Of a DNA stretch of 64,000 nucleotides, positions 6,957 to 26,018 are shown piece by piece. The stretch spans positions 26,014 through 90,013 of the forward strand of contig JBDHAN010000001.1 of assembly GCA_039588055.1 (NCBI GenBank). The letters are read 5' to 3'. Every line of letters begins with the position of its first letter. Position 1 is the first letter of the stretch. The notes beneath the pieces were generated by a model. The model made no database searches, was not told where the DNA came from, and saw only the letters and a program-made list of their open reading frames with translations. Position numbers and translations under genes: made by a program. This DNA is from Gemmatimonadota bacterium. GTDB taxonomy: Bacteria; Gemmatimonadota; Gemmatimonadetes; Gemmatimonadales; GWC2-71-9.

Positions 6957-7134
6957 CGGGCGTGCCCCCGGGAGAAGAGATCCGCCGAATGTAATCGGTC
7001 GTCTGAGGTCACGCTCCCCCGACGCGGAGGTCAAGGGCGACGATTGGCAGCTGGAACGATGGAAGCCACCAATCCCACAGACCAGTGGCTTCCGATGTCT
7101 CGTCTGCTCGGCGCGCCCGCCGCAGAGCCGCCGG

Positions 7135-7602
7135 TTACCCACCCACGGCAAACGCGAATACGGTCGGCTTCACGAGTTGCTCGAAATCCCGGTATGCGAG
7201 CCTGATCAGCTCCGTGTGTGTGCACGCGTTGAACGCGATCTCATCGTCGGCGGCGAGCTGACGATCGGCGAAGACCGGCATGTCGTAGAGATTGCCGAAG
7301 GGCGGCATTGCTCCGACTTCACACTCGGGGAACTTGTGGCGGAAATCCTCCTCGCTGGCGAGCTCGACGCGCGCACCACCGAGGCCTTCCTTGAGGCGGG
7401 CGAAGTCGACCTGTGACGGCGCCGGCAGCACTGCCATGGCCAATTTCCCGTCGACTTTGATGACCACAGTCTTCGCGAGTTCCTTGCCCGGCACATGCGC
7501 GGTCGCGGCCGTCTTCTGCGACGTGTACGCCGGCGAATGGCGAACAGTCTCATAGGCAACCCGGTTCTCGTCGAGAAACTTCTTGAGCGTATTGAGCGGC
7601 AT
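7135..7602 (-). CDS. YbaK/ProX-like aminoacyl-tRNA editing (deacylase) domain protein
   Basis: 155 aa. The segments LAKTVVIKVDGKLAMAVLP..., GAMPPFGNLY and DDEIAFNAC fit the YbaK/EbsC fold. A strong SD (GGGAGGGGGA) precedes the ATG. Confidence 0.75.
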   Translation of the reverse strand: MPLNTLKKFLDENRVAYETVRHSPAYTSQKTAATAHVPGKELAKTVVIKVDGKLAMAVLPAPSQVDFARLKEGLGGARVELASEEDFRHKFPECEVGAMPPFGNLYDMPVFADRQLAADDEIAFNACTHTELIRLAYRDFEQLVKPTVFAFAVGG

Positions 7603-7964
7603 GATGTCCCCCTCCCGGAGCCACTTATAATCCTGTGCTCAGCGTACCGTTGATGGCAAGACGCCAAGCTTCATCGGGGATTCACACTCGTTTTAGGACG
7701 TCGGACGCATTTTTTCCCCGGTAGGGTATGTCGCTCCCTTACCCACCTCAGGATGGCGCGCTGAGGTGCCGTACAAGAAGAGCAATTCGCGACAGGCTCT
7801 GACTTGCAGCGCTCACATTGGCGAACCATGCGGTCGCGGCCGAACCGTATGGGAATGGAGGCCGGAGCTTCCCGTCGCCCTACCGCGAACCCAAATTGAG
7901 GCACCGGCGGCGAGGGAAAGAAGAACGGAGGGAGCAATCCCCCGTCCCCGGCTAACTGATGTGT

Positions 7965-8006
7965 GGGGCGCCCGATCACAACCGGAGCGGGCGCCCCAGT
8001 TTTTTT
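7965..8006 (+). terminator. Rho-independent terminator with no upstream plus-strand CDS
   Basis: Perfect 10-bp GC stem GGGGCGCCCG (7965-7974) / CGGGCGCCCC (7988-7997) with a 13-nt loop, then AG and TTTTTTT (8000-8006). Confidence 0.7.
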
Positions 8007-8075
8007 AGCGTGTGACCGCGCGCGCCCACGCACAGTATCTGAGGGTGGATCAGCACCGTCGCAGGAGGGTCTCAC

Positions 8076-8555
8076 TTGGCGCTCACCCACCCACGCCGCC
8101 GCGTCGCCACGATCCTAGTCTCCGTGGGAACCGTGCTTGCATGTAGTGACCGCCTCGGACCCCTACCAGCCCCCGGCGTCGAACTCATCCCGACGGGTCT
8201 CGTCACAACGCTCGATCCTGCCGCGGCTGCCGGTGCTCCCTACACGATCGACTCCCTACGTGTTCAGTCCGACAGTCTCTATCTGGGCGTTTCGTACGCG
8301 GGTGGGTGTCGGCAGCATCAGTTCCAACTCGTGTTGTCGACCAGTTTCATGGAGTCGGAGCCGGTGCAGACACGGGCTGTGTTGTCACATGACGATCATG
8401 AGGACGCGTGTGAGGCGCTCCTGCAGGACGTGCTGAGCGCGACGCTCGAGCCGATCAAGCACGAGTGGCAGCGGTCGTACCAGTCGCCGTCCGGGACGAT
8501 TCTCCTCAGGCTCTGGACGGCCGCCGAGCCGATCACGATTCCGTACACCTTCTAG
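8076..8555 (+). CDS. Hypothetical lipoprotein
   Basis: TTG start with AGGAGG 8 nt upstream. Lipobox-like signal VGTVLAC. Contains a YAGGC...HQF...ESEPVQ...SHDDHEDAC pattern. I recognise no family. Confidence 0.55.
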   Translation: MALTHPRRRVATILVSVGTVLACSDRLGPLPAPGVELIPTGLVTTLDPAAAAGAPYTIDSLRVQSDSLYLGVSYAGGCRQHQFQLVLSTSFMESEPVQTRAVLSHDDHEDACEALLQDVLSATLEPIKHEWQRSYQSPSGTILLRLWTAAEPITIPYTF

Positions 8556-10707: not shown

Positions 10708-10885
10708 AGTCTTGCTAAGTTCTTTTCCCTAGCTATTTTATCCCCCTGCCAGCCGAGCAGGGCGGACGGCGTCCGCCGTCCGGTTTGAGCGGTCTACAAC
10801 AGTACGCTTGACACGCGGTGGAGGCTAGAAGGCTGCCAGCCAGCGGCCATCGCCGGTATGGATTTTGCGCTCTTGGAGATACAGG

Positions 10886-12328
10886 ATGGAGAACGTCCAG
10901 ATTCCACAGCTCTCGTTCGACCGGTTCTTGGCGATCATTGGCCGGACCGGGGCGGAGCGTCTGCGCCACACTGTCGACGACGCGAAGTCGATTCTGGACG
11001 GGCGGACAATCTGGCACATCAACTCCACACGGTCCGGCGGCGGCGTGGCGGAAATGCTCCAGACGTTTCTGGGCTATGAGCGGGGTGCCGGGATCGACGC
11101 GCGTTGGCTGGTCATTGACGGCGACGCCGACTTCTTCACCTTGACCAAGCGGATTCACCACCACCTTCACGGGCGGAACGGCGACGGCCCACGCTTTTCC
11201 GCCGGTGACGAGGATCACTACCTCGAGATCGCGCAGCGCAATGCCCGTGCGGTGCTTCAGCACGTTCGGGCGGGTGACGTCGTCGTGCTGCACGATCCCC
11301 AGACGGCCGGGCTCACTGCTCCCCTCAAACGGGCGGGGGCGCTCGTCGTGTGGCGGTGTCATGTGGGGTGCGACCGAGTCAACCAGATCGTGCACGGTGT
11401 GTGGAAGTTTCTGCGGCCACACCTCGAGCAGGCGGACGCGTTCGTGTTCTCACGGCCTGAATATGTTCCGGCCTGGCTCAGAGACGGGCCGACCCACATC
11501 ATGCCACCGGCCATTGACGCGTTCGCGGTCAAGAACATGCCGATCTCGCGCGGATCGGTGCGTGCCATTCTGCATCAGATTGGCCTGCTTGCCCATGGAT
11601 CGACCAACGGCGAGCTCAATTTCATGCGGACCAACGGGTCCCTCGGCCGCGTCCAGCGACATGCAGAGATCCTTCAGACCGCGCCGATCCCCAACTGGCG
11701 AGTTCCGGTCATCACGCAGGTCTCCCGCTGGGATCCGCTCAAGGACATGCAGGGCGTCTTGCGTGGTTTTGCCGCCCACCTCGACGCCATGGGCTCAGCC
11801 CACTTGGCACTGGTCGGCCCGGACGTGTCCGGTGTCACCGACGATCCCGAAGGTGCCCAAGTATGGAATGAGTGCATCACCCTCTGGCGGGATCTCCCCG
11901 ACCGCGCGAAGGACCACATTCACCTCGTGAGCCTCCCGATGGACGACGTCGAGGAGAACGCGGTGATGGTGAATGCACTCCAGCGGCACTCCACGGTGGT
12001 GGTACAGAAGAGCCTCGAGGAGGGCTTCGGACTCACGGTGACCGAAGCGATGTGGAAGGGGCGCGCCGTTGTCGCCAGCGCCATCGGCGGCATTCAGGAC
12101 CAGATCGTCGACGGTACCCACGGCCTGCTCCTGGAGGATCCCGCAGACCTCTCCGCGCTTGGCACCGCGCTCCAGCGTTTGCTGCACGACCATGCGCTCG
12201 TGCGGCGTCTTGGCCGTAACGCGCGCCAACGGGCAATCACCAGGTTCCTCGCACCACGGCGCCTGGCGCAGCTGGTCGACGTGGTCTACGCGATGGAAGG
12301 ACGGGAGCGAGCGACGCAGGCAGCGTAA
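10886..12328 (+). CDS. GT4-family glycosyltransferase (trehalose-synthase-like)
   Basis: The N-terminal WHINSTRSGGGVAEML block and the C-terminal EGFGLTVTEAMWKGRAVVAS (the GT-B E-x7-E region) support the call. ATG 10886 has GGAG 8 nt upstream. Confidence 0.7.
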   Translation: MENVQIPQLSFDRFLAIIGRTGAERLRHTVDDAKSILDGRTIWHINSTRSGGGVAEMLQTFLGYERGAGIDARWLVIDGDADFFTLTKRIHHHLHGRNGDGPRFSAGDEDHYLEIAQRNARAVLQHVRAGDVVVLHDPQTAGLTAPLKRAGALVVWRCHVGCDRVNQIVHGVWKFLRPHLEQADAFVFSRPEYVPAWLRDGPTHIMPPAIDAFAVKNMPISRGSVRAILHQIGLLAHGSTNGELNFMRTNGSLGRVQRHAEILQTAPIPNWRVPVITQVSRWDPLKDMQGVLRGFAAHLDAMGSAHLALVGPDVSGVTDDPEGAQVWNECITLWRDLPDRAKDHIHLVSLPMDDVEENAVMVNALQRHSTVVVQKSLEEGFGLTVTEAMWKGRAVVASAIGGIQDQIVDGTHGLLLEDPADLSALGTALQRLLHDHALVRRLGRNARQRAITRFLAPRRLAQLVDVVYAMEGRERATQAA

Positions 12329-12330
12329 GG

Positions 12331-12358
12331 AGCTTTCAGCTTTCAGCTTTCAGTTTTC
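12331..12358. repeat. 7-bp tandem repeat (AGCTTTC x3 plus AGTTTTC)
   Basis: Read directly from the sequence in the 69-bp convergent intergenic region. Confidence 0.8.
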
Positions 12359-12370
12359 GGGTGTCCCCTA

Positions 12371-12410
12371 CTCGTCTCTCCTCGTCTTCACTCGTCCTTA
12401 GTCGTCTTTT
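12371..12410. repeat. 10-bp periodic repeat (CTCGTCYYNN x4)
   Basis: CTCGTCTCTC CTCGTCTTCA CTCGTCCTTA GTCGTCTTTT. The last units overlap the stop codon and the final codons of the beta-propeller gene. Confidence 0.6.
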
Positions 12411-13396
12411 CCCACCCACGCCATCCCGTCGGGCTCGTCGCCTGCCACCACTTCACCGTCGAGACGCCACTCGACCAGATTGATCACTGAGATCTTGTCG
12501 TCCTGCGTGTTGGCCACGTAGGCGGTGCGATCATCGGGTGTGATGAGGATCCCGACGGGGACCGCGCCGACCGACAGTCGACGAACGACCTCCCAGGTCT
12601 CGAGATCCACTGCCGCGACCTCGTTCCCCTGTGCGTTTGAGACCAGTGCCTCGCGCCCGTCGGGCCGAATCTTTACGCGTATGGGGAACGCACCTACGTT
12701 GAGATGCCGAGTGACCGTGTTCGAGGTCACGTCGATCTCTGACAGCGTGCCAGCCGCTCGATTCGTCACGTAAACCTTTGAGCCATCCGGCGTCACGTCG
12801 ATGCCCTCGGCCCCGGCCCCGGTCGGCAACTGACTCACCACGGTGCCGGCGACGGCGTCCACCACCGTGACGGTCCCGCTCCCAATGTTGGCGGTGTACG
12901 CTAGGCCCGCCCGTTCGGCGACGACCACCATGTGCGTGACCTGCTGACCGGTCTCGACCGCCTGCAGAATCTCCCGGGTGTCCGGGTCTATCTGCAGCAC
13001 GTGTCGCGAACCCTCGGTCGTCACCCAGATCGTACCGTCGCGAGCCACCGCAATGCCATGCGGCCGGGTGTGCGTGCCAAGGTCGATGGCACCGAGGGCC
13101 TCGCCCGTCTCGAGATCCACGATCGTGATGGTATTCCCTGGTGCTGAACCCGTCCCGTAGTCCGTCACGTAGGCGAAGCGGCCGTCTGCGGAGACGGCGA
13201 CCTCGTGTGGCGCAAACCCGGTTGGGATCGTCGTCAGCGTCTCGCGAGATGTCGGATCGATCACCGAGATCGTGCTGGCGCTCTTGTTCACTACGACGAG
13301 ACGCTGTGCCTGAACGTCTTCGGGTGCCGCGACACAGGCAGCCACTGTACCACCGAGCACGGCCGCAGTGATGATCGGGAGGGTCTTCGAGCTCAT
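12398..13396 (-). CDS. YVTN-family beta-propeller repeat protein (exported)
   Basis: Repeated blades: AYVTDYG, AYTANIGSGTVTVVD, VYVTNRAAGTLSEID, ALVSNAQGNEVAAVD, AYVANTQDDKISVIN. Signal peptide starts at ATG 13396 (MSSKTLPIITAAVLGGTVAAC). Confidence 0.8.
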   Translation of the reverse strand: MSSKTLPIITAAVLGGTVAACVAAPEDVQAQRLVVVNKSASTISVIDPTSRETLTTIPTGFAPHEVAVSADGRFAYVTDYGTGSAPGNTITIVDLETGEALGAIDLGTHTRPHGIAVARDGTIWVTTEGSRHVLQIDPDTREILQAVETGQQVTHMVVVAERAGLAYTANIGSGTVTVVDAVAGTVVSQLPTGAGAEGIDVTPDGSKVYVTNRAAGTLSEIDVTSNTVTRHLNVGAFPIRVKIRPDGREALVSNAQGNEVAAVDLETWEVVRRLSVGAVPVGILITPDDRTAYVANTQDDKISVINLVEWRLDGEVVAGDEPDGMAWVGKDD

Positions 13397-13662: not shown

Positions 13663-14355
13663 ATGCAGGTTCTGGCAGGTACGAGCGGCTACGCCTACAA
13701 AGAATGGAAGGGTTCGTTCTACCCCGAGGACTTACCGAACGACGGGATGCTCGGCTTCTACGCCACACAGTTCGGAACAGTCGAGATCAACAATACGTTC
13801 TATCGCATGCCCTCGGAGCAGGTGCTCTCACAGTGGGCCGACCAAGTTCCGGACACCTTCGCATTTGTGCTCAAAGCCTCGCGACGCATCACGCATCAAA
13901 AACGCCTCAAGGCCGCGGACGACGCCCTCACATACCTTGTGCAGAACGCCAGAGTTCTCGGCGAGCGCCTAGGGGCGATCCTCTTTCAACTCCCGCCCAA
14001 CCTGAAAAAGGACACCGACCGGTTGCGCGACTTCGTGCAGCTCCTTCCGGATGGTCTCGGCGCGGCGTTCGAATTCCGCCATGTCTCTTGGTTCGATGAG
14101 GACGTGTACCACATCCTCGGCGATCACCGAGTCGCCCTGTGCATCGCAGATACCGGTGACGGCACGACACCGCGTGAGATCACTGCGCCGTACGGCTATC
14201 TCCGACTACGCCGGGAGCAGTATGACGAGGCCGAGCTCAATAGCTGGGCTGAGTGGGTCGGGAAACAGCCGTGGGACCGCGCCTTCGTCTTCTTCAAGCA
14301 CGAAGATGCCGGTGCGGGGCCTGCCCTCGCGAAGCAGTTCCTCGCTTCCCTCTAA
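13663..14355 (+). CDS. DUF72 (YecE/UPF0759) family protein
   Basis: The N-terminus GTSGYAYKEWKGSFYPEDL, then VEINNTFYRMP and AILFQLPPN, are typical of DUF72. Confidence 0.85.
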   Translation: MQVLAGTSGYAYKEWKGSFYPEDLPNDGMLGFYATQFGTVEINNTFYRMPSEQVLSQWADQVPDTFAFVLKASRRITHQKRLKAADDALTYLVQNARVLGERLGAILFQLPPNLKKDTDRLRDFVQLLPDGLGAAFEFRHVSWFDEDVYHILGDHRVALCIADTGDGTTPREITAPYGYLRLRREQYDEAELNSWAEWVGKQPWDRAFVFFKHEDAGAGPALAKQFLASL

Positions 14356-14370
14356 GCGACAGGTCGCGCG

Positions 14371-14781
14371 CTACCGACCGCCCAGCTTTCGGATCCGATC
14401 CCACTGGATCTTCGACGCTGGCATCACCGAGAGCCGCGGCATCCGGACCAGCGCGAGATCCTTGAACGCGCGATCGGCCTTGATGGTCTTGAGTTCCACT
14501 GGCTCGGGCAGACGCTCGCGCGCCTTGATGTCGAAGACAACGAGCTTGTCATCGCCTGCCTCCGGATCGGGATACGGAGCCGACACCACACTCGCCTCTC
14601 CAACCACGGCCTTTTCCTTCCCCGAGTGGTAGACGAACACGTGATCACCTTTGCGCATCGCGCGGATGTGCTTGAGCGCAAGGTTGTTGCGGACGCCGTC
14701 CCACACGGTCTGTCTGTCGCGCTCGAGATCGTCGTAGCTATACGCCGATGGCTCCGATTTCACGATCCAGTAATTCGCCAT
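14371..14781 (-). CDS. EVE (PUA-like) domain protein
   Basis: MANYWIVKSEPSAYSYDDLERDRQTVWDGVRN...MRKGDHVFVYHSG is the canonical EVE N-terminus. The start lies 7 nt after the upstream hydrolase stop. Confidence 0.85.
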   Translation of the reverse strand: MANYWIVKSEPSAYSYDDLERDRQTVWDGVRNNLALKHIRAMRKGDHVFVYHSGKEKAVVGEASVVSAPYPDPEAGDDKLVVFDIKARERLPEPVELKTIKADRAFKDLALVRMPRLSVMPASKIQWDRIRKLGGR

Positions 14782-14788
14782 ACGCCCC

Positions 14789-15631
14789 TCACAACTGGTC
14801 CGCCCAGGCAGTGAGCGCCTGGACTAGTTCGGTCATTACGTCCTCGTGGGTCTTTCCGCTCGCCTTCGGCACTTTGAATGAATGGCCTCCGCCATCTACC
14901 TCGTGCAGCGACGCCTTCGGGCCCAGCGCCGCACAGACGGATCTCATCGCGCCCAAGTCCGCCAACGAGTCCCGCGTGCCTTGCAGGAACAGCATGGGCA
15001 CGTCGACCACCTTCAGGTGCTCGGCCCGCTCAGTCCCTGCCACGCCCGGCCGGTGAAGCGGAAGACCGAGCAATGCGAGTCCGACGACGCCCTGCAGAGC
15101 GGATTCGGATTGTGCTGTCGAGGTCATGCGGCCTCCGAAAGACTTCCCGCCGACGATGAGCCGACAGGCCGGAGCGTGCACCATTGCTGCGGCGACCGCT
15201 CCCCGCACGGTAGCCGTCGCCACCGGCGGCGAATCGGGCCGTCCACGACCTCGCTCCATGTAGGGGAAGTTGTACCGCAGCGTCGCAACGCCGCGCGCCC
15301 CCAGACCCATCGCCACACGCTCCATGAACGGGTGCGTCATGCCCGCCCCGGCCCCATGAGCCATGACGTAGAGCAAGGAGGAGTCCTCGGGCAGCATTAG
15401 CAGACCGGACACGTGGCTACCGTCTGGCAACGAGATCTCCACTAATCTTGCCGACTGGGACGACATTGACGACTGAGACGACTCTCTTGCTGAAGCCATG
15501 CTGCCGCTCTGCCGCGCTGCCGCCCTGCCACCTTTCTTCTGCCCCCTCTGCCCCCTCTGCCCCCTCTGCCCCCCCTGCCCCTTCTGCCCCTTCTGCCCCT
15601 TCTGCCTCTTCTGCCTCTTCTTCACCCCCAT
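14789..15631 (-). CDS. Alpha/beta hydrolase (KANL3/Tex30 / dienelactone-hydrolase-like) with a basic (Q-K/R-G)n N-terminal tail
   Basis: Nucleophile elbow GGKSFGG, then LQGTRD and a C-terminal GGGHSF. ATG 15631 lies 1 nt after the ligD stop (TGAGATG) with AGGAG 10 nt upstream. An alternative start at ATG 15499 would exclude the repeat-encoded tail. Confidence 0.7.
   Translation of the reverse strand: MGVKKRQKRQKGQKGQKGQGGQRGQRGQRGQKKGGRAAARQSGSMASARESSQSSMSSQSARLVEISLPDGSHVSGLLMLPEDSSLLYVMAHGAGAGMTHPFMERVAMGLGARGVATLRYNFPYMERGRGRPDSPPVATATVRGAVAAAMVHAPACRLIVGGKSFGGRMTSTAQSESALQGVVGLALLGLPLHRPGVAGTERAEHLKVVDVPMLFLQGTRDSLADLGAMRSVCAALGPKASLHEVDGGGHSFKVPKASGKTHEDVMTELVQALTAWADQL
15540..15620. 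repeat. 9-bp tandem repeat, 9 units (TGCCYCYTC on the plus strand; GARGRGGCA on the minus strand), flanked by degenerate copies at 15502-15539
   Basis: Read directly: 3x TGCCCCCTC, 1x TGCCCCCCC, 3x TGCCCCTTC, 2x TGCCTCTTC. Confidence 0.9.
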
Positions 15632-15632
15632 C

Positions 15633-18185
15633 TCACATCCGCTCCTGCAGCCGCGCGAGTGCGACTGCCAAATCCGGCTTGAGCTGCAGCACCGCCCGAA
15701 GCGGGTCTTCCCCCAAGCGCTTCATGCGCCGGGCGGCGTTCTTGATCGTGTACCGTCCGATGTCCAGCCGGGCGTTTACCTCACGCCAGCGCAGCGGCAT
15801 CGAGACCAGCGCGCCGGGCACGGGTCTCACACAGAACGGTACGACCAGGAGCTTTCCGTGGCCGTTCTGGAGATAGTCCACATAGACTTTGCCTTCGCGC
15901 TGCGAGGGTCTTCGGGCAACGGTCGCGATTTCGGGCAGCTCGTGAGCCACCACCCGCGCGAGGAGCTCACCAAGAGTCCGTGACTGATCATGCGTACACT
16001 GCCGCCCCAACGGAACGAGCACGTGGAGTCCGGACGATCCGCTCGTCTTGACGAAGCAGGGAAGCTCGATCTCGTCACAGAGGGCGCGAAGGGCCTTTGC
16101 GACGTCCACCACATGCCGGAACGGCGCGTCCTTAGGATCGAGATCCAGAATGCACCAATCGGGCTGCTCGAGCGTGCCAATGCGGCTGGCCCAGATATGC
16201 AGCGGGATGGAGGCCAGGTTGATGACGTAGAGCAGCGACTCGTCGTTATCGCACACGAAGTACTTGAGTTCTCGCTCCGTCTGCTCACTCCACACGGTCT
16301 CCGTCCTGAGCCACGGAGGCGCAAAGTCCGGCGCGTCCTTCTGAAAGAACGACTTGCCATCGATGCCGTCCGGAAACCGTGTCATCACCAGAGGGCGGTC
16401 ACGCAGGTAGGGAACGATCCACGGAGCGATCGCCCGGTAATAGTCGATGAGATCTCCCTTGGTGTAGCGTTCTTCCGGCCAGAAGACTTTGTCGAGGTTG
16501 CTGAACTGGAGATCGGGCGCAGGGAAGGCGCCGCCCTCCCCATCTTCCGGGAACTCGTCGTCGGCCCCTTCCCGTTGACCCGATCCAGGAAACAGACACT
16601 CGTCGGCAGGCTTGTCGTCGCGGAAACGGAGAAACACGGGTTGCCTGAGCAGTCCGTCTTCCGTCCATTCCTTGAATCGCACCTCGCAGACGAACTCAGG
16701 TTCCACCCACGCGTGAGCTTCACTTCGAGGAGCGCCGCTGCACGGAGGGTCCGATCGGAGCGACCCCTCAAGACCGTCACGAATCTCGTCCAGCTGCGCG
16801 CTGGTGAACCCAGTGCCGACCCGACCTGAGTAGATCAGCTGCTTCTCGTCATAGGCAGCCAGGTGCAGCGCCCCGAAGCCGCTGCGCGAGCCCTTGGGTC
16901 GCGTGAATCCTACGACGACGAAGTCGCCGGTCCGGTCGGCGCGGAGCTTGACCCAGTTGGGAGATCGGCCGGCGCGGTATGTGGAGCCGGACTTCTTGGC
17001 GACGATGCCCTCGAGGCCGAGCTTTTGTACTTCCTCGAAAAACTCTTCGCCGTGCTCATCAACGTGATCGGAGAACCGAATCGGTCCGACGGTGGGCAGG
17101 GCCTGGCGAAGCAGATCTTTCCGCGTCGTAAGCCCAAGCGACCGGAGATCGTATTCCTCAAAGGCCAGGAGATCGAACGCGTAGAATGTGACCGGCCGTT
17201 CGGACGCCGCCCGGCGGACGTCCAGCGGCCGCGTCAAACGCGCCCGTTTCTGGAGCCGCTGGAAGGAGGGCTTGCCGGCATCATCGTGCACGACGACCTC
17301 GCCGTCCACGACCACGTCCTGAAACGGAAGGTGCCGCAGGGCACTCACGATCTCGGGAAACGCGTGCGTCGCGTCCCGTCCGTTACGGGTGACGAGGTGG
17401 GGCTCACCGCTATCGAGTGCAGCAAGCAGACGGTACCCATCATATTTGATCTCGAAGACCCACCCGGGCTTGGAGAACGCGCGCTTGCGCGTCTCAGCGA
17501 GCATTGGCTTGACATCTCGCACGTGGACCGAATGCTTCTTCGCACGCTTACGCTCGAGCTCGTTCCGAATGTCGTCCGCCGGCCCCCCGGCCGCTTTCAG
17601 CTGCTCCACCGTGAGCCCTGAGAGTACCGAGTCCTGGGGGAACTCGTCTCCCGGCGTTGCAACGAGCCGATCTCGTTCCTTGATGAGCAGCCAATCTTTC
17701 TCACTCTTCTTGAGCTTCACCAATGTCCACGCGCCACGAAGCTTGTAGCCGCGTAGTTCGAAGAGGAGTTTGCCCTTCTCGAACCCTTCGTCGACATCAG
17801 CCAACGGGATCCACACGCCACGGTCCCACACGATCATGGCACCGGCACCGTAGTTGCCTTCGGGAATCACGCTTTCGAAATCGCCGTACTCCAGCGGATG
17901 GTCCTCGACTTTGACGGCGAGCCGCTTGTCTGTGGGATCCCGCGATGGGCCCTTGGGCACCGCCCACGATTCGAGCACACCTCCCATCTCCAGACGGAGA
18001 TCGAAGTGGAGCTGCCGGGCAGCATGCTTGTGCACGACGAACAACCGTCCGCTCCGGTCTGCAACGGTGCCGGCAGGCTCGGGCGTCCGCTCCACTGCAC
18101 GCTTGGCGCGGTAGGATTCCAGCCGATCGCTGTCCTTCTCTTGACTCTTCGGCATGAGGGGAGGATTAATCTGACCCGTAACCAC
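15633..18185 (-). CDS. ligD: Multifunctional DNA ligase D (phosphoesterase-ligase-polymerase order)
   Basis: N-terminal PE domain (YRAKR...TPEP, FVVHKHAARQLHFDLRLE), central ATP-ligase domain (EIKYDGYR, the KxDG motif), and C-terminal primase-polymerase domain (FVKTSGSSGLHVLVPL). An alternative ATG start is at 18155. Confidence 0.95.
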   Translation of the reverse strand: MVTGQINPPLMPKSQEKDSDRLESYRAKRAVERTPEPAGTVADRSGRLFVVHKHAARQLHFDLRLEMGGVLESWAVPKGPSRDPTDKRLAVKVEDHPLEYGDFESVIPEGNYGAGAMIVWDRGVWIPLADVDEGFEKGKLLFELRGYKLRGAWTLVKLKKSEKDWLLIKERDRLVATPGDEFPQDSVLSGLTVEQLKAAGGPADDIRNELERKRAKKHSVHVRDVKPMLAETRKRAFSKPGWVFEIKYDGYRLLAALDSGEPHLVTRNGRDATHAFPEIVSALRHLPFQDVVVDGEVVVHDDAGKPSFQRLQKRARLTRPLDVRRAASERPVTFYAFDLLAFEEYDLRSLGLTTRKDLLRQALPTVGPIRFSDHVDEHGEEFFEEVQKLGLEGIVAKKSGSTYRAGRSPNWVKLRADRTGDFVVVGFTRPKGSRSGFGALHLAAYDEKQLIYSGRVGTGFTSAQLDEIRDGLEGSLRSDPPCSGAPRSEAHAWVEPEFVCEVRFKEWTEDGLLRQPVFLRFRDDKPADECLFPGSGQREGADDEFPEDGEGGAFPAPDLQFSNLDKVFWPEERYTKGDLIDYYRAIAPWIVPYLRDRPLVMTRFPDGIDGKSFFQKDAPDFAPPWLRTETVWSEQTERELKYFVCDNDESLLYVINLASIPLHIWASRIGTLEQPDWCILDLDPKDAPFRHVVDVAKALRALCDEIELPCFVKTSGSSGLHVLVPLGRQCTHDQSRTLGELLARVVAHELPEIATVARRPSQREGKVYVDYLQNGHGKLLVVPFCVRPVPGALVSMPLRWREVNARLDIGRYTIKNAARRMKRLGEDPLRAVLQLKPDLAVALARLQERM

Positions 18186-18265
18186 TTGAAAAACAATCTG
18201 TTAGACCGTGAGCTCCGCGGGACGTTCTTGCGACAGCCCTGGGAACGCTCTATAGTCTCTCGCCT

Positions 18266-19105
18266 ATGCCAGCAAGACCTATCAGCAGTGCTACCGTCTC
18301 GTTCGGACTCGTGTCCGTCCCGATCAAGCTCTACTCGGCGGCCGAATCCCAGTCGAAGATCAGCTTCAACTGGCTGCACAGGGACTGCGGCTCGCGCCTT
18401 CGCCAACAGTACGTCTGCAAGAAGCACGGCGACATCGTCGAGAAGGACGACATGGTCAAGGGCTACGAGTTCGCCAAGGACCAGTACGTACTGTTTACGT
18501 CGGAGGAGCTCAAAGAGGTCGAAGCGAAAGCGACGGAGTCGATCGAGATCGTGGAATTTGTGCCGGCAGAGCAGGTCGATCGCCATTACCTCAGCAAGGT
18601 TTACTACCTCGGTCCCGACAAGGGTGGGGATCGGGCGTACAAGCTGCTGAGCCGCGCCATGCAAGAGACCAAGCTCTGCGCCCTCGCCAAGTATGCCGCC
18701 CGCGGCAAGCAATACCTCGTGCTCGTACGGCCCATGGGTGAGGGGCTGGCCATGGAGCAGCTGCATTACCCCGATGAGCTCCGCTCTTTCGATGAGGTGC
18801 CGCTGGGCGAGAGCGAGATCAAAGACGAAGAGCTGAAACTCGCCGTGGAGCTCATCAAGCAGGCCGCCTCCGAGGAGTTTCATCCCGAGAACTTCGAGGA
18901 CGAGGTCCGCAAGCGAACGCTTGAGCAGATCGAACGGAAGGTTGCCGGCGAAGACATCACGCTGGCTCCGACCGAGGAGCCCAAGACCCAGATCATCGAC
19001 CTGATGGAGGCGCTCAAGGCCAGCTTGGCGAAGGGTGAGCAGCGCGCCGCTGAGCAGCAGGCATCGAAGAAGGCCAAGGCGACACCCAAACGAAAAAAGG
19101 CATGA
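18266..19105 (+). CDS. ku: Ku DNA end-binding protein
   Basis: RPISSATVSFGLVSVPIKLYSA, KGYEF..DQYV and YYLGPDKGG are typical bacterial Ku. The C-terminal tail is Lys-rich (SKKAKATPKRKKA). The gene is divergent from ligD across an 80-bp spacer. Confidence 0.95.
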   Translation: MPARPISSATVSFGLVSVPIKLYSAAESQSKISFNWLHRDCGSRLRQQYVCKKHGDIVEKDDMVKGYEFAKDQYVLFTSEELKEVEAKATESIEIVEFVPAEQVDRHYLSKVYYLGPDKGGDRAYKLLSRAMQETKLCALAKYAARGKQYLVLVRPMGEGLAMEQLHYPDELRSFDEVPLGESEIKDEELKLAVELIKQAASEEFHPENFEDEVRKRTLEQIERKVAGEDITLAPTEEPKTQIIDLMEALKASLAKGEQRAAEQQASKKAKATPKRKKA

Positions 19106-19698: not shown

Positions 19699-21318
19699 GT
19701 GGCTGATATCAGGTTGGCGGCCGCGATGTCCACTCCGCAGGGGAGAGCGACAGCACCGCTCGTCTCCCTCCCCTCGGACGTCATCGAGCAGTCCTGCAAA
19801 CGTGTCGGCATTCTCGGGATCGTCTTTGCGCTATTCTGGGCCCTCGCGCTGTTCATGGGCAACGTGGTGCACGGCTTTATCGAACCGGCCGTTCGCATGA
19901 CCGAGTTTGCCTTTCCGATGCCTGGCAACGTGTTTGCCACCATCGGACTGGCCATGTCGCTCGGTATGGTCGTGCTCGCCGGCAGGCTGCAGGACCGCCC
20001 CAACCTGCTGCTGGACCTGAGCCTCGTCTTCATGGTGCTGACGGCCCTCTTGATCGGCATTCTCAATCAGTGGATCCCGAACTTCGAGGGTAGAGGTATC
20101 TCCTGGATCTGTGTCGTCATTCTCGTGTACCCTGCGATTGCGCCGAATACGCCGGGAAAGATCTTACTGGCCGGCGTTCTCGCCGCCTCCATGGATCCGT
20201 TCGGTCTTCTTGTGACAGAGCTGCGCGGGGTGGAGTACGACGCGCCGCGCTCCGCCCTCGGCTTCAAGTTCCTGGCGAACTATTTGTGCGCCCTGCTGGC
20301 CGTCGTGCCAGCCAAGATGATCCGCGTGCTAGGACGGCACGCCCGGCGGGCACGCGACTTAGGGAGCTACCGGCTGGGCGATGAGCTGGGACGCGGCGGC
20401 ATGGGAACCGTGCACCGGGCCGAGCATCGTCTGCTGGCGCGACAGGCGGCCATCAAACTCATTCGGCCGGAGCTGCTTGGCGCCCGAGATCCGGACACGG
20501 CACGCATCATGGTCGAGCGGTTCAAGCGCGAGGCTCAAGCCTCGGCCTCACTCCGCTCGCCACACACCATCGAGTTGTACGACTTCGGCGCCACCGAAGA
20601 CGGCGCGTTCTACTACGTGATGGAGCTGCTCGACGGCATGAGCCTGGATGAGCTCATCGAGCGCAACGGCCCGGTTCCCGCGGAGCGGGCCATCGCGATC
20701 ATCCGACAGGTGTGCCTATCGCTCGCCGAGGCGCACGCCCGCGGTCTCATTCATCGGGACGTCAAGCCGTCGAACATCTTCTTAACGCGTATGGGCTTGC
20801 AGGTCGACTTCGTGAAGGTGCTCGACTTTGGGCTCGTCAAGGCACAGGAGAGCCGCGAACAGACACTGCTCACCCAGCAAGGAATGACCACAGGCACACC
20901 GGCTTACATGGCACCGGAAATGGCGATGGGAGAAAGCGACATCGACAGCCGGGTCGATGTCTACGCGGTCGGATGCGTGTTGTACTATCTCCTCACCGGA
21001 CAACTCGTGTTCGAAGCCGACACGCCAATGAAGATGATGCACCGCCACATCAGCGACGCGCCGGCGCCCCCGTCCCACCGAACCGAGCTCCCGATTCCGG
21101 CTGAGCTCGAGCAACTCGTCATGGATTGTCTCGCCAAAGTGCCCGACGGCCGTCCGGCGAGCGGCGCCGCGGTTGCACAGCGACTCACCGTCATTCCGGT
21201 TCGTGAGCCATGGACCGATGAGCGTGCCCACCGTTGGTGGCACACCAACCGTCCAGAGACACTGGAAGAGTGCGCTTGTGACCAGGGCGTGCTCTGCCCG
21301 GCCATGGTGACAGCGTGA
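19699..21318 (+). CDS. Ser/Thr protein kinase with an N-terminal polytopic membrane domain
   Basis: The N-terminal ~215 aa is multi-TM. The Hanks kinase domain follows (GRGGMGTVHRA...AIK, HRDVKPSNIF, DFG, GTPAYMAPE). Confidence 0.85.
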   Translation: MADIRLAAAMSTPQGRATAPLVSLPSDVIEQSCKRVGILGIVFALFWALALFMGNVVHGFIEPAVRMTEFAFPMPGNVFATIGLAMSLGMVVLAGRLQDRPNLLLDLSLVFMVLTALLIGILNQWIPNFEGRGISWICVVILVYPAIAPNTPGKILLAGVLAASMDPFGLLVTELRGVEYDAPRSALGFKFLANYLCALLAVVPAKMIRVLGRHARRARDLGSYRLGDELGRGGMGTVHRAEHRLLARQAAIKLIRPELLGARDPDTARIMVERFKREAQASASLRSPHTIELYDFGATEDGAFYYVMELLDGMSLDELIERNGPVPAERAIAIIRQVCLSLAEAHARGLIHRDVKPSNIFLTRMGLQVDFVKVLDFGLVKAQESREQTLLTQQGMTTGTPAYMAPEMAMGESDIDSRVDVYAVGCVLYYLLTGQLVFEADTPMKMMHRHISDAPAPPSHRTELPIPAELEQLVMDCLAKVPDGRPASGAAVAQRLTVIPVREPWTDERAHRWWHTNRPETLEECACDQGVLCPAMVTA

Positions 21319-21329
21319 CCAAAGCCTCT

Positions 21330-22928
21330 CTACGACTTGACCGTTGGAGGCTCGCCGTCGCGCACTTGTGGCGCCGGCACCAACTCTGGCAAATTCGTCC
21401 GCCACCACCGCTCCGCCAGCTCTGCCGTCCAGGGATCACCGACATCACAGGAGGCCAGCAACCGACCGAGCGTCATCGCGTCGGCTGGTCGGCGCTCGCG
21501 GTCCTTCTCGATGCAGGTGAGCAGGAGCTCGTCCAACTCACGAGTGACCGGAAGCTCGGAGTGATACGACGCAGGCAGCGGCGTGTTCCGAATGTGCGAC
21601 ATCATCATCTTCATGGGCGTCTCCGCCTCGAAGACCAGGCGGCCCGTAAGCAGCCAATACGCGACACACCCGAGCGCATAGATGTCGCTCCGACCGTCGA
21701 TCTCTTCACCCCGGGCCAGCTCTGGTGACATGAAGGCCGGGGTGCCCGTGGCCATGTTCGGCGCGGTGAGCTTGGCCTGCTCCGTCTCGCTCGCGAGCCG
21801 CCCTTTGACCAGGCCGAAATCGAGCACTTTGAGGAAGTCCGCTTCCAGTCCCACCCAGCAGGTGTAGAGGTTGGCCGGCTTCACGTCCCGGTGTACAAGC
21901 CCGATGGCGTGTGCTTCGGCCAGAGCGCGGCAAGCCTGTTGCAGCAGATACGTGGCACGTGCCGGCCGCATCGGACCGAAGCGCTCGATAAGCGTCTCGA
22001 GGTTGAGCCCCCGTAGGAGCTCCATCACGTAGTAAAAGTCGCCCGCGTCCGTGACACCGAAGTCGTAGAGTGCGATGGCATGTGGTGAATGCAGGCTCGA
22101 CGCGGCCTCGGCCTCCCGCTTGAACCGTCGTACGATGGTCGCGGGTGGTTCGGCCTCACCCGTGCTCAACATTGCCGGCCGAACCAACTTGACCGCCGCG
22201 GGACGGCGGAGCAGCCGGTGTGTCGCCGCATAGACCTCGCCCATTCCCCCGCGGCCTAACAAGTCGCCAAGCTGGTAACTACCGAGCTCGCGAGCGTGGC
22301 GAACCTGATTGCTCAGCCGTGTGATGACGTGGGACGGCAATACGGCGAGAACGGCACACAGGTAGTTGGGCAGAACCGCCCAGACCAACACCGGAACTGA
22401 CGGCAATTCGACACCGCGTGCCCCGGTTATCAGTAGCCCGACGGGATCCATGCTCGCGGCGACCAGCGCTGCGACGAGGGTGCGTCGCCTGGTACTGGGC
22501 ACGATGGCCGGAAACACCAGCACCAACACACAAATCCATGAGAGTCCAGTCGTGTTCGGTGTCCACTGATTCACAATGCCGATTGCGAGCGCAATCACAA
22601 CTTCGTACGCAAGCCCGAGGTCCAGCAGCCGTCGCGTTCCGGCAGCGGCGCTCCGGGTATAGCCATAGACCACGAACGAGGTGACGATCACGACAAGCGC
22701 CGCCGGGTTGCCCGGTACCGGCCACGCGTCGTCCAGCGGCGCCCCCGGCGAGAGAATGGGACTCACGAAGTTGTTCAGCGCGAGCTGCAGTAGCCAAAGC
22801 CCTGCTCCAACGAGGCACGCAACGCCCAGGCGCTTGGTGGCAATCTGAAGGAGATCGGCCGGAACTTCCTCGATTGCACCGAGAGGCCCGGTCCGCACGT
22901 TGACGTCTGGGAATTCCGCTGGGTCCAT
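21330..22928 (-). CDS. Ser/Thr protein kinase, paralog of 19699..21318 with the same architecture
   Basis: The membrane domain shares blocks with its neighbour (NQW.PN..G.SWICV.VLV.PAI.P, AASMDP.GLL.T..RGVE). Kinase motifs are GRGGMGEVYAA...AVK, HRDVKPANLY, DFG and GTPAFMSPE. Confidence 0.85.
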   Translation of the reverse strand: MDPAEFPDVNVRTGPLGAIEEVPADLLQIATKRLGVACLVGAGLWLLQLALNNFVSPILSPGAPLDDAWPVPGNPAALVVIVTSFVVYGYTRSAAAGTRRLLDLGLAYEVVIALAIGIVNQWTPNTTGLSWICVLVLVFPAIVPSTRRRTLVAALVAASMDPVGLLITGARGVELPSVPVLVWAVLPNYLCAVLAVLPSHVITRLSNQVRHARELGSYQLGDLLGRGGMGEVYAATHRLLRRPAAVKLVRPAMLSTGEAEPPATIVRRFKREAEAASSLHSPHAIALYDFGVTDAGDFYYVMELLRGLNLETLIERFGPMRPARATYLLQQACRALAEAHAIGLVHRDVKPANLYTCWVGLEADFLKVLDFGLVKGRLASETEQAKLTAPNMATGTPAFMSPELARGEEIDGRSDIYALGCVAYWLLTGRLVFEAETPMKMMMSHIRNTPLPASYHSELPVTRELDELLLTCIEKDRERRPADAMTLGRLLASCDVGDPWTAELAERWWRTNLPELVPAPQVRDGEPPTVKS

Positions 22929-25995: not shown

Positions 25996-26018
25996 TCAGG
26001 GAGGCGCGCCGCCCAGGG

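Follow-up and report, generated by a model that had tools for sequence, protein, structure and literature searches.

Within the 64,000-nucleotide stretch of Gemmatimonadota bacterium contig JBDHAN010000001.1 that we analysed (positions 26,014 to 90,013 of the forward strand; hereafter the window), the genes for Ku and LigD, proteins of non-homologous end joining (NHEJ), lie next to a gene encoding a serine hydrolase of the Abhydrolase_11 family (PF20408). At least six lineages of phylum or class rank show this hydrolase in physical association with Ku/LigD. Judged by its genes, the locus is a canonical Ku/LigD NHEJ locus of Gemmatimonadota, extended to a ligD-hydrolase-EVE operon and flanked by a gene for a DUF72 protein. 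In teaching and in models, bacterial NHEJ is a minimal machine of two proteins, Ku and LigD. That core system is known; the extension, which is supported by comparative genomics, appears to be new with respect to the searched literature.

To assess the association, one genome per species was scanned with an alignment of the hydrolase; the 80 best matches gave 80 loci. The Ku, LigD, EVE and DUF72 proteins of the window were searched against these loci with tblastn, and a locus was called linked when LigD and/or Ku lay within 10 kb of the hydrolase. Taxon labels were taken from record titles. The hydrolase was linked in 24 of the 80 species: in 15 of 25 loci from Gemmatimonadota (two further loci were short of upstream flank), four of six from Betaproteobacteria, both from Bacteroidota, the single loci from Verrucomicrobiota and Gammaproteobacteria (Rudaea), and one of 40 from Alphaproteobacteria (a metagenome-assembled genome, or MAG, of Xanthobacteraceae). 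None of the three loci from Acidobacteriota and neither of the two unclassified loci were linked. Given a 20-kb interval, a genome of about 5 Mb and one or two copies of ligD, chance linkage is expected at a rate in the order of 1% per locus. As a control, 46 unrelated EVE loci (317 kb) were put through the same pipeline and returned no match to LigD, Ku or the hydrolase. Conserved linkage between the hydrolase and ligD across phyla had been set beforehand as one test of the first-pass annotation of this DNA, which had suggested that the hydrolase and the EVE protein may be accessory factors of NHEJ; for the hydrolase, linkage was found in other genomes, not missing from them.

The linked hydrolases are spread over many clades of a quick neighbour-joining tree, and they occur with Ku/LigD in at least six gene arrangements. 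In Gemmatimonadota, ligD is followed by the hydrolase and EVE genes. In L029 and L076 (loci are cited by our own numbers), ligD is followed by ku and by a gene for a MerR-TPR protein, and a DUF72-hydrolase gene pair is divergent from them; a similar pair is divergent from ligD in L074, where the contig ends. The order in L035 is ligD, ku, MerR-TPR gene, hydrolase gene. The hydrolase gene is convergent with a ligD, ku, TPR gene series in L050 and L079, and with ligD in L071. In L066, ligD is divergent from a pair in which the hydrolase gene precedes the DUF72 gene. Linkage that persists through so much rearrangement argues for selection, and not for common descent of one segment.

The junctions between the genes were inspected in the window. 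The ligD/hydrolase junction reads ATG TGA g ATG GGG, with the hydrolase ATG 1 nt past the ligD stop and an AGGAG ending 10 nt before that ATG. The TGA of the hydrolase is followed by 7 nt and the ATG of the EVE gene. These spacings had been described in the first-pass annotation and were read in the sequence as described. The stops of the EVE gene and of the convergent DUF72 gene are 15 bp apart. No terminator-like site was found in or near the ligD/hydrolase and hydrolase/EVE junctions; two minus-strand consensus matches nearby fall within ligD. The ligD/hydrolase junction has no hairpin and folds no better than shuffled sequences (z = -0.26). The three genes thus lie on one strand, with gaps of 1 and 7 nt and terminator-free junctions, as is required of an operon. 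Because they are packed this tightly, without a hairpin between them, ligD, the hydrolase gene and the EVE gene are almost certainly co-transcribed and translationally coupled.

The same spacing recurs in related genomes. Among 33 related loci in which ligD is followed by the hydrolase gene, 30 carry a start codon in the hydrolase frame at an offset of -17 to +36 nt relative to the ligD stop; offsets of -17, -14, -4 and +1 are recurrent. Gene callers independently gave ligD/hydrolase overlaps of 4 nt in L001 and of 17 nt in L002-L005. By these positions, the hydrolase is tightly coupled to the ligD stop throughout the Gemmatimonadota. A start-stop overlap with ligD throughout a phylum points to matched expression, beyond membership of a common regulon. 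Together, the linkage in six lineages and the coupling to the ligD stop support co-expression and make a repair-related role of the hydrolase plausible. A direct role in end joining would be plausible as well.

The four open reading frames (ORFs) named in the first-pass annotation (ku, ligD, hydrolase and EVE) are present at the coordinates given in Table 1, and their Pfam scores are well over the gathering thresholds. The bit scores and gathering cutoffs are 157.5 and 27 for PF20408, 139.8 and 23 for PF01878, and 203 and 25.3 for PF01904, the last being the match of the DUF72 gene; Ku and LigD both score above the NCBIfam equivalog cutoffs. The Lys-rich C-terminus ascribed to Ku was seen in the translation, which ends in ...SKKAKATPKRKKA. 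The divergence of ku and ligD also stands; the 80 bp reported between them holds only if LigD starts at the GTG at 18185. The alternative start, the ATG at 18155 (MPKSQEK..., 840 aa), is the gene call in the near-identical contig L169. The DUF72 gene was absent from the first-pass annotation and belongs to the conserved neighbourhood.

Table 1. Features of the NHEJ locus in the window, and genes found beside Ku or the hydrolase in related loci (aa, amino acids; TRF, Tandem Repeats Finder).
Feature	Sequence	Positions	Strand	Evidence or remark
ku, 279 aa, Lys-rich C-terminal tail	window	18266..19105	+	PF02735, E=1e-53; TIGR02772 Ku_bact, 285 bits (cutoff 150)
ku-ligD divergent spacer	window	18186..18265	.	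80 bp with GTG 18185; 110 bp with ATG 18155
ligD, 850-aa ORF; phosphoesterase (PE), then ligase, then Prim-Pol	window	15633..18185	-	PF13298, PF01068, PF04679, PF21686; TIGR02776, 539 bits (cutoff 373)
Abhydrolase_11 serine hydrolase, 280 aa, KANL3/Tex30-like, COG3571-type	window	14789..15631	-	PF20408, E=4.5e-46, residues 88-277
9-bp tandem repeat, 9.6 copies; encodes (K/R)GQ-rich N-terminal extension of hydrolase	window	15536..15621	-	TRF
Standalone EVE-domain protein, 136 aa	window	14371..14781	-	PF01878, E=8.6e-41
DUF72 protein, 230 aa, convergent on EVE gene	window	13663..14355	+	PF01904, E=6.9e-60
MerR-TPR or TPR protein after ku	L002	5724-6566		
MerR-TPR or TPR protein after ku	L018	5698-6537		
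MerR-TPR or TPR protein after ku	L029	4708-5637		
MerR-TPR or TPR protein after ku	L035	1530-2519		
MerR-TPR or TPR protein after ku	L076	4717-5604		
MerR-TPR or TPR protein after ku	L071	7538-8644		
MerR-TPR or TPR protein after ku	L012	5948-6571		
MerR-TPR or TPR protein after ku	L079	10634-11272		
UvrD-exonuclease directly after hydrolase	L045	2248-5274		
UvrD-exonuclease directly after hydrolase	L008	10669-13560		
UvrD-exonuclease directly after hydrolase	L070	10642-13584		
UvrD-exonuclease directly after hydrolase	L024			
UvrD-exonuclease directly after hydrolase	L028			
UvrD-exonuclease directly after hydrolase	L044			
UvrD-exonuclease directly after hydrolase	L080			

In the ku-ligD spacer there is one sigma-70-like match, at 18228-18256 (+), which is not above the number expected from shuffles. 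A search of the locus against Rfam returned neither 6S RNA nor any other RNA family. An RNA element comparable to the 6S RNA of proteobacterial EVE contexts was therefore rejected, the junction also folding no better than shuffles, and so was a defence system made of the EVE, hydrolase and DUF72 genes, for which the PADLOC models gave no match. Two genes away from the locus, at 10865-12328 (+), the window encodes a TreT-like trehalose synthase (PF21269 plus GT1), which is kept in L169 at 7040-8482. On the other side, two paralogous Ser/Thr protein kinases of about 535 aa each, encoded convergently at 19699-21318 (+) and 21330-22928 (-), adjoin ku and DoxX. Their N-terminal halves are hydrophobic and alike, and the same kinase pair is present in L001.

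DUF72 is another recurrent partner. Clustering of the ORFs of the linked loci placed a DUF72 gene within 10 kb of the hydrolase in 15 loci. DUF72 occurs together with both the hydrolase and LigD in L029, L050, L066, L074, L076 and Gemmatimonadota, and beside the hydrolase and Ku/LigD it spans Beta- and Gammaproteobacteria, Verrucomicrobiota and Gemmatimonadota; in these loci a DUF72-hydrolase gene pair is often divergent from ligD. The DUF72 protein of the window is homologous to TM1631 (1vpq, E=1.6e-18). DUF72 has been predicted computationally to be a repair enzyme like endonuclease IV and UVDE, and is enriched near polB2 damage-response operons (PMC3828134, PMC4939058, PMC11791011). Separately, in Variovorax paradoxus (CP063167.1; L168, 8105-9621), the start of an Abhydrolase_11 homologue shares 4 nt with the gene for a TatD-family hydrolase, a TIM barrel of nuclease type; this arrangement parallels the DUF72-hydrolase pairs of other genomes.

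Two further genes recur in the relatives of the window (Table 1). Pfam scans detected a protein with a MerR helix-turn-helix domain and TPR repeats directly downstream of ku in Gemmatimonadota and in Beta- and Gammaproteobacteria. In Bacteroidota, Verrucomicrobiota and the Xanthobacteraceae MAG, the same position after ku is taken by a TPR protein with no detected MerR domain; the one from the MAG has a weak BRCT-like N-terminus. The MerR-TPR protein could be a so far undescribed NHEJ regulator or scaffold. The other gene, which comes directly after that of the hydrolase in seven loci from Gemmatimonadota, encodes a UvrD-family helicase of roughly 1000 aa into which an RNase_T (DnaQ-like) exonuclease domain is inserted; in three of these loci neither LigD nor Ku was detected. 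The UvrD-exonuclease fusion is also present within 10 kb in L020 and L077. Both genes were considered as partners inside the window and set aside, since the window itself contains neither; like DUF72, these partners are not named in the first-pass annotation.

The hydrolase has an intact active site. The GxSxG nucleophile motif noted in the first pass is present as GKSFG, with S164 as the serine, and the triad S164/D221/H250 is invariant in 83 aligned sequences. In the AlphaFold2 model, the core (residues 60 to 280, approximately) has block means of the predicted local distance difference test (pLDDT) that are mostly above 90. Foldseek against the PDB returned lid-less alpha/beta hydrolases at about 20% identity, with probability 1.0 for 2o2g, 2fuk, 3trd and 2i3d. 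The fold is therefore predicted to be a compact lid-less alpha/beta hydrolase, and such an active site would be compatible with a macromolecular substrate. Neither Foldseek nor a profile search of PDB sequences found a close characterised relative, and we found no described function for PF20408 members in the searched literature. An assignment of function from structure was abandoned, as the model and both searches gave generic hydrolases and esterases only.

Both the hydrolase and DUF72 are credible candidates for extra parts of the NHEJ pathway, since both are found again within 10 kb of Ku/LigD in several other phyla. We give about an even chance to a model in which the two are accessory end-cleaning factors co-expressed with LigD, with EVE as a lineage-specific add-on. 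Under this model, termini that are blocked or damaged, such as those with ester- or peptide-linked adducts or with damaged nucleotides, would be cleaned by the hydrolase and by DUF72 (a TIM barrel that published work relates to UV-damage endonuclease and endonuclease IV) ahead of filling and sealing by LigD. The core reaction would not need the two proteins, and their benefit would come in dormant or desiccated cells. The basic N-terminal extension of the hydrolase, predicted to be disordered and acquired in this clade, would, if translated, hold the enzyme to DNA in a way similar to the Lys-rich tail of Ku, and EVE would be an addition of this one lineage that may read modified or damaged bases.

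Several observations count against the end-cleaning model. Ku and LigD suffice for end joining in the systems that have been studied (see also PMC6379672, PMC7969030). No NHEJ gene lies near the hydrolase in 39 of the 40 sampled Alphaproteobacteria, including Bradyrhizobium, where the hydrolase is found among fatty-acid genes. A plasmid collection, tried as an independent sample, gave only six matches, and the hydrolase on a Caballeronia plasmid is unlinked to NHEJ genes; the Variovorax homologue with the TatD overlap is from this collection too. Among solved structures, the closest are dienelactone hydrolases, esterases and uncharacterised lid-less hydrolases from structural genomics, at no more than about 20% identity, and none of them acts on nucleic acid. 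The charge of the core domain, which we tried as a proxy for DNA binding, does not differ between NHEJ-linked and unlinked homologues (median isoelectric point 9.1 and 9.3, respectively; p=0.82). The linkage of EVE to NHEJ genes is limited to one lineage (see below). Finally, the loci were drawn from scans centred on the hydrolase and on EVE.

The main rival to the end-cleaning model is co-regulation in a stress island. Here ligD and ku would belong to a stationary-phase or desiccation regulon, and the hydrolase, DUF72 and EVE would be co-expressed passengers, for instance a small-molecule esterase and an RNA-modification reader. Most of the sampled hydrolase homologues are in metabolic contexts away from NHEJ genes, and the nearest folds are generic esterases. 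The TreT-like trehalose synthase near the locus, in the window and again in L169, is in keeping with NHEJ genes set in a context of desiccation or dormancy; the Pseudomonas ku and ligD genes are presumably also in a region of stress or trehalose/glycogen genes. Standalone EVE proteins of proteobacteria are likewise found in housekeeping contexts such as ZapAB-6S RNA-EVE (PMC7641849). However, the start-stop overlap with ligD across a phylum indicates matched expression, which is more than a common regulon demands, the recurrent partners (UvrD-exonuclease, DUF72, and MerR-TPR after Ku) are themselves established or putative DNA-repair proteins, and the linkage is retained through at least six rearranged architectures. 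We consider the stress-island explanation rather unlikely. Were it correct, the locus would still be a conserved dormancy or desiccation repair island of Gemmatimonadota and other soil bacteria.

The EVE gene was sampled separately, through a metagenome scan with the EVE protein of the window whose 80 best matches gave 80 loci. EVE homologues with at least about 60% identity to that of the window are preceded by the hydrolase and ligD wherever the flank is long enough, with two exceptions within the lineage: in L114, ligD is followed by EVE without the hydrolase, and in L106, the hydrolase is followed by EVE with no ligD within 8 kb. All 46 loci with EVE proteins below 60% identity (317 kb) lack the hydrolase, LigD and Ku. 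The proposal that EVE is a conserved NHEJ-linked gene was thus not borne out, as its linkage is restricted to one lineage, with 0/46 of the more distant EVE loci linked.

Because the link is restricted in this way, it could be inherited synteny: the EVE gene, and possibly the whole extension within the clade, would be kept together without functional meaning, a housekeeping EVE happening to lie downstream. For the hydrolase, this explanation is excluded by the data from multiple phyla. For EVE, the order hydrolase-EVE is found only above the identity threshold given above, and several ligD-hydrolase loci of Gemmatimonadota have no EVE; L024, L045 and L080 have the UvrD-exonuclease directly after the hydrolase instead. 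The published census of EVE contexts does not mention NHEJ. On the other hand, the ligD-hydrolase-EVE block is kept while its flanks change, from DoxX to MerR-TPR beside ku, and from DUF72 to the ribosomal protein Thx and a Y-family polymerase past EVE. In many loci the offset of the EVE start relative to the hydrolase stop is -8 to +12 nt, and L114 retains ligD directly followed by EVE with the hydrolase missing. We put the chance of mere inherited synteny a little short of even. In L002, which is from another lineage of Gemmatimonadales, EVE is followed on the same strand (10782-12967) by ribosomal protein Thx, an ORF of 127 aa, and a Y-family (IMS/DinB-type) polymerase, so that the polymerase is the third gene after EVE. 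The closest solved relatives of the EVE protein of the window are Rpa0253 (2gbs, 5e-31), Atu2648, PSPTO5229 and THYN1.

The Lys/Arg/Gln/Gly tract of the hydrolase corresponds to residues 1 to about 44, which are encoded by the 9-bp tandem repeat. This tract had been described as a 35-residue basic tail of the hydrolase. The tract itself is present, but it is N-terminal and repeat-encoded. Nor is it a general trait of the hydrolase, since it is missing outside the small clade of the window and varies in copy number within it; a family-wide basic tail was therefore rejected. In L169, which is otherwise identical in the junction stretch (L169 3771-3970), the repeat is shorter by 36 nt, or four units, and the tract thus varies in copy number. 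Homologues P0002-P0008, L001, L087 and L088 (57-70% overall identity) share MGVK..KGQ..SGRAAARQSG without the repeat expansion. The repeat also contains, at 15542-15599 on the sense strand, the sole quadruplex-type motif, (G>=4 N1-7)x4, that a regular-expression scan found in the 64-kb window. It might influence how the hydrolase is translated, or act as a slippage hotspot. Two more short tandem repeats, of 18/9 bp at 15448-15483 and of 8 bp at 15501-15529 (-), fall within the Ser/Ala-rich linker that joins the basic tract to the core, and have an atypical codon composition.

The basic extension could be an artefact of annotation, with the 9-bp repeat acting as a non-coding spacer, a G-quadruplex or a slippage-prone element, and the hydrolase starting at M45, M57 or M79. 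The gene caller used on the near-identical contig places the start at M79 (P0001, 202 aa). Residues 1-58 are predicted to be disordered in the AlphaFold2 model (pLDDT below 50). More distant homologues, outside the clade, have only about 15-20 residues ahead of the first strand (VSGLL), which is consistent with a start at M57, and the unequal copy number of the repeat in near-identical genomes points the same way. The GC content at third codon positions (GC3) of codons 45-73 is atypical, 0.62 against 0.78 in the core. In contrast, the repeat codons have a GC3 of 0.93 in the hydrolase frame, the phylum's ancestral point of coupling is the ATG beside the ligD stop, which has the AGGAG 10 nt upstream, and the shared MGVK...GQ...SGRAAARQSG is common to the clade members at the protein level. 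The frame is open from this ATG into the core in the window, L169, L001, L087, L088 and P0002-P0008; this openness is weak evidence, because units of 9 bp cannot shift the frame and GC-rich DNA has few stop codons. On balance we doubt that the extension is an artefact.

A wider form of the end-cleaning model can be put forward only tentatively. In it, Abhydrolase_11 and DUF72 would form an unrecognised DNA-end-cleaning module of bacterial NHEJ, accompanied in many lineages by the MerR-TPR protein as regulator or scaffold and by the UvrD-exonuclease, and in the lineage of the window an EVE reader would sense modified or damaged bases at breaks. If this were so, end joining in many soil phyla would be a multi-component pathway, and PF20408, a domain also found in the eukaryotic TEX30 and KANSL3, and DUF72/YecE would each gain a first biochemical function. 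The hydrolase and DUF72 are concrete candidates for the missing end-processing steps by which NHEJ would handle chemically "dirty" ends beyond the phosphoesterase and polymerase of LigD, and the MerR-TPR and UvrD-exonuclease proteins are candidate regulators and helicase-nuclease partners.

The locus was compared with known systems. As in the two-component NHEJ of Mycobacterium, Pseudomonas, Bacillus and Sinorhizobium, the window has Ku with a Lys-rich C-terminal extension and a three-domain LigD, encoded by adjacent, divergent genes. The domain order of this LigD, PE-LIG-POL, is that of Agrobacterium LigD (PMC1920237). It differs from the two-component systems in that ligD heads an operon of three genes, followed by the serine hydrolase and EVE and abutted by the DUF72 gene, and in that relatives of the window add MerR-TPR after Ku and the UvrD-exonuclease fusion. 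None of these extras was mentioned in the NHEJ literature that we searched. A published analysis of NHEJ neighbourhoods considered only how close ku and ligD lie to each other (PMC7719229), a review of LigD does not mention accessory factors, and we found no paper in the searched literature that ties PF20408/COG3571, DUF72 or EVE to Ku/LigD.

The DUF72 protein resembles TM1631 and YecE-like proteins in its PF01904 match and its homology to TM1631, and differs in its association with Ku/LigD and the hydrolase across phyla, which was not found described in the searched literature. Like Rpa0253, Atu2648, PSPTO5229 and THYN1, the EVE protein of the window is a standalone protein with a single EVE domain of 136 aa in all. 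Known contexts of EVE are ZapAB-6S RNA-EVE, McrBC, restriction-modification and toxin-antitoxin genes, whereas EVE in the window has ligD, the hydrolase and DUF72 as its neighbours; Bell, Wolf and Koonin (2020) describe other lineage-specific contexts and mention neither LigD, NHEJ nor Gemmatimonadota. The hydrolase agrees with PF20408 in its full-length match to the hidden Markov model, its intact Ser-Asp-His triad and its predicted lid-less fold. In contrast to the rest of the family, the clade of the window adds the repeat-encoded basic N-terminal extension.

Accessory links to Ku and LigD have precedents. The mycobacterial UvrD1 and Sir2 proteins interact with Ku. The nearest precedent is that of the noncanonical PolX exonucleases, which adjoin LigD in Alphaproteobacteria (PMC9226535). 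The extension described here differs from these in that its candidate partners belong to other protein families, the alpha/beta serine hydrolases and the DUF72 TIM barrels. It resembles them in that a repair enzyme tied genomically or physically to Ku/LigD is the proposed end processor, and a UvrD-family helicase is again involved, beside the hydrolase in the relatives of the window.

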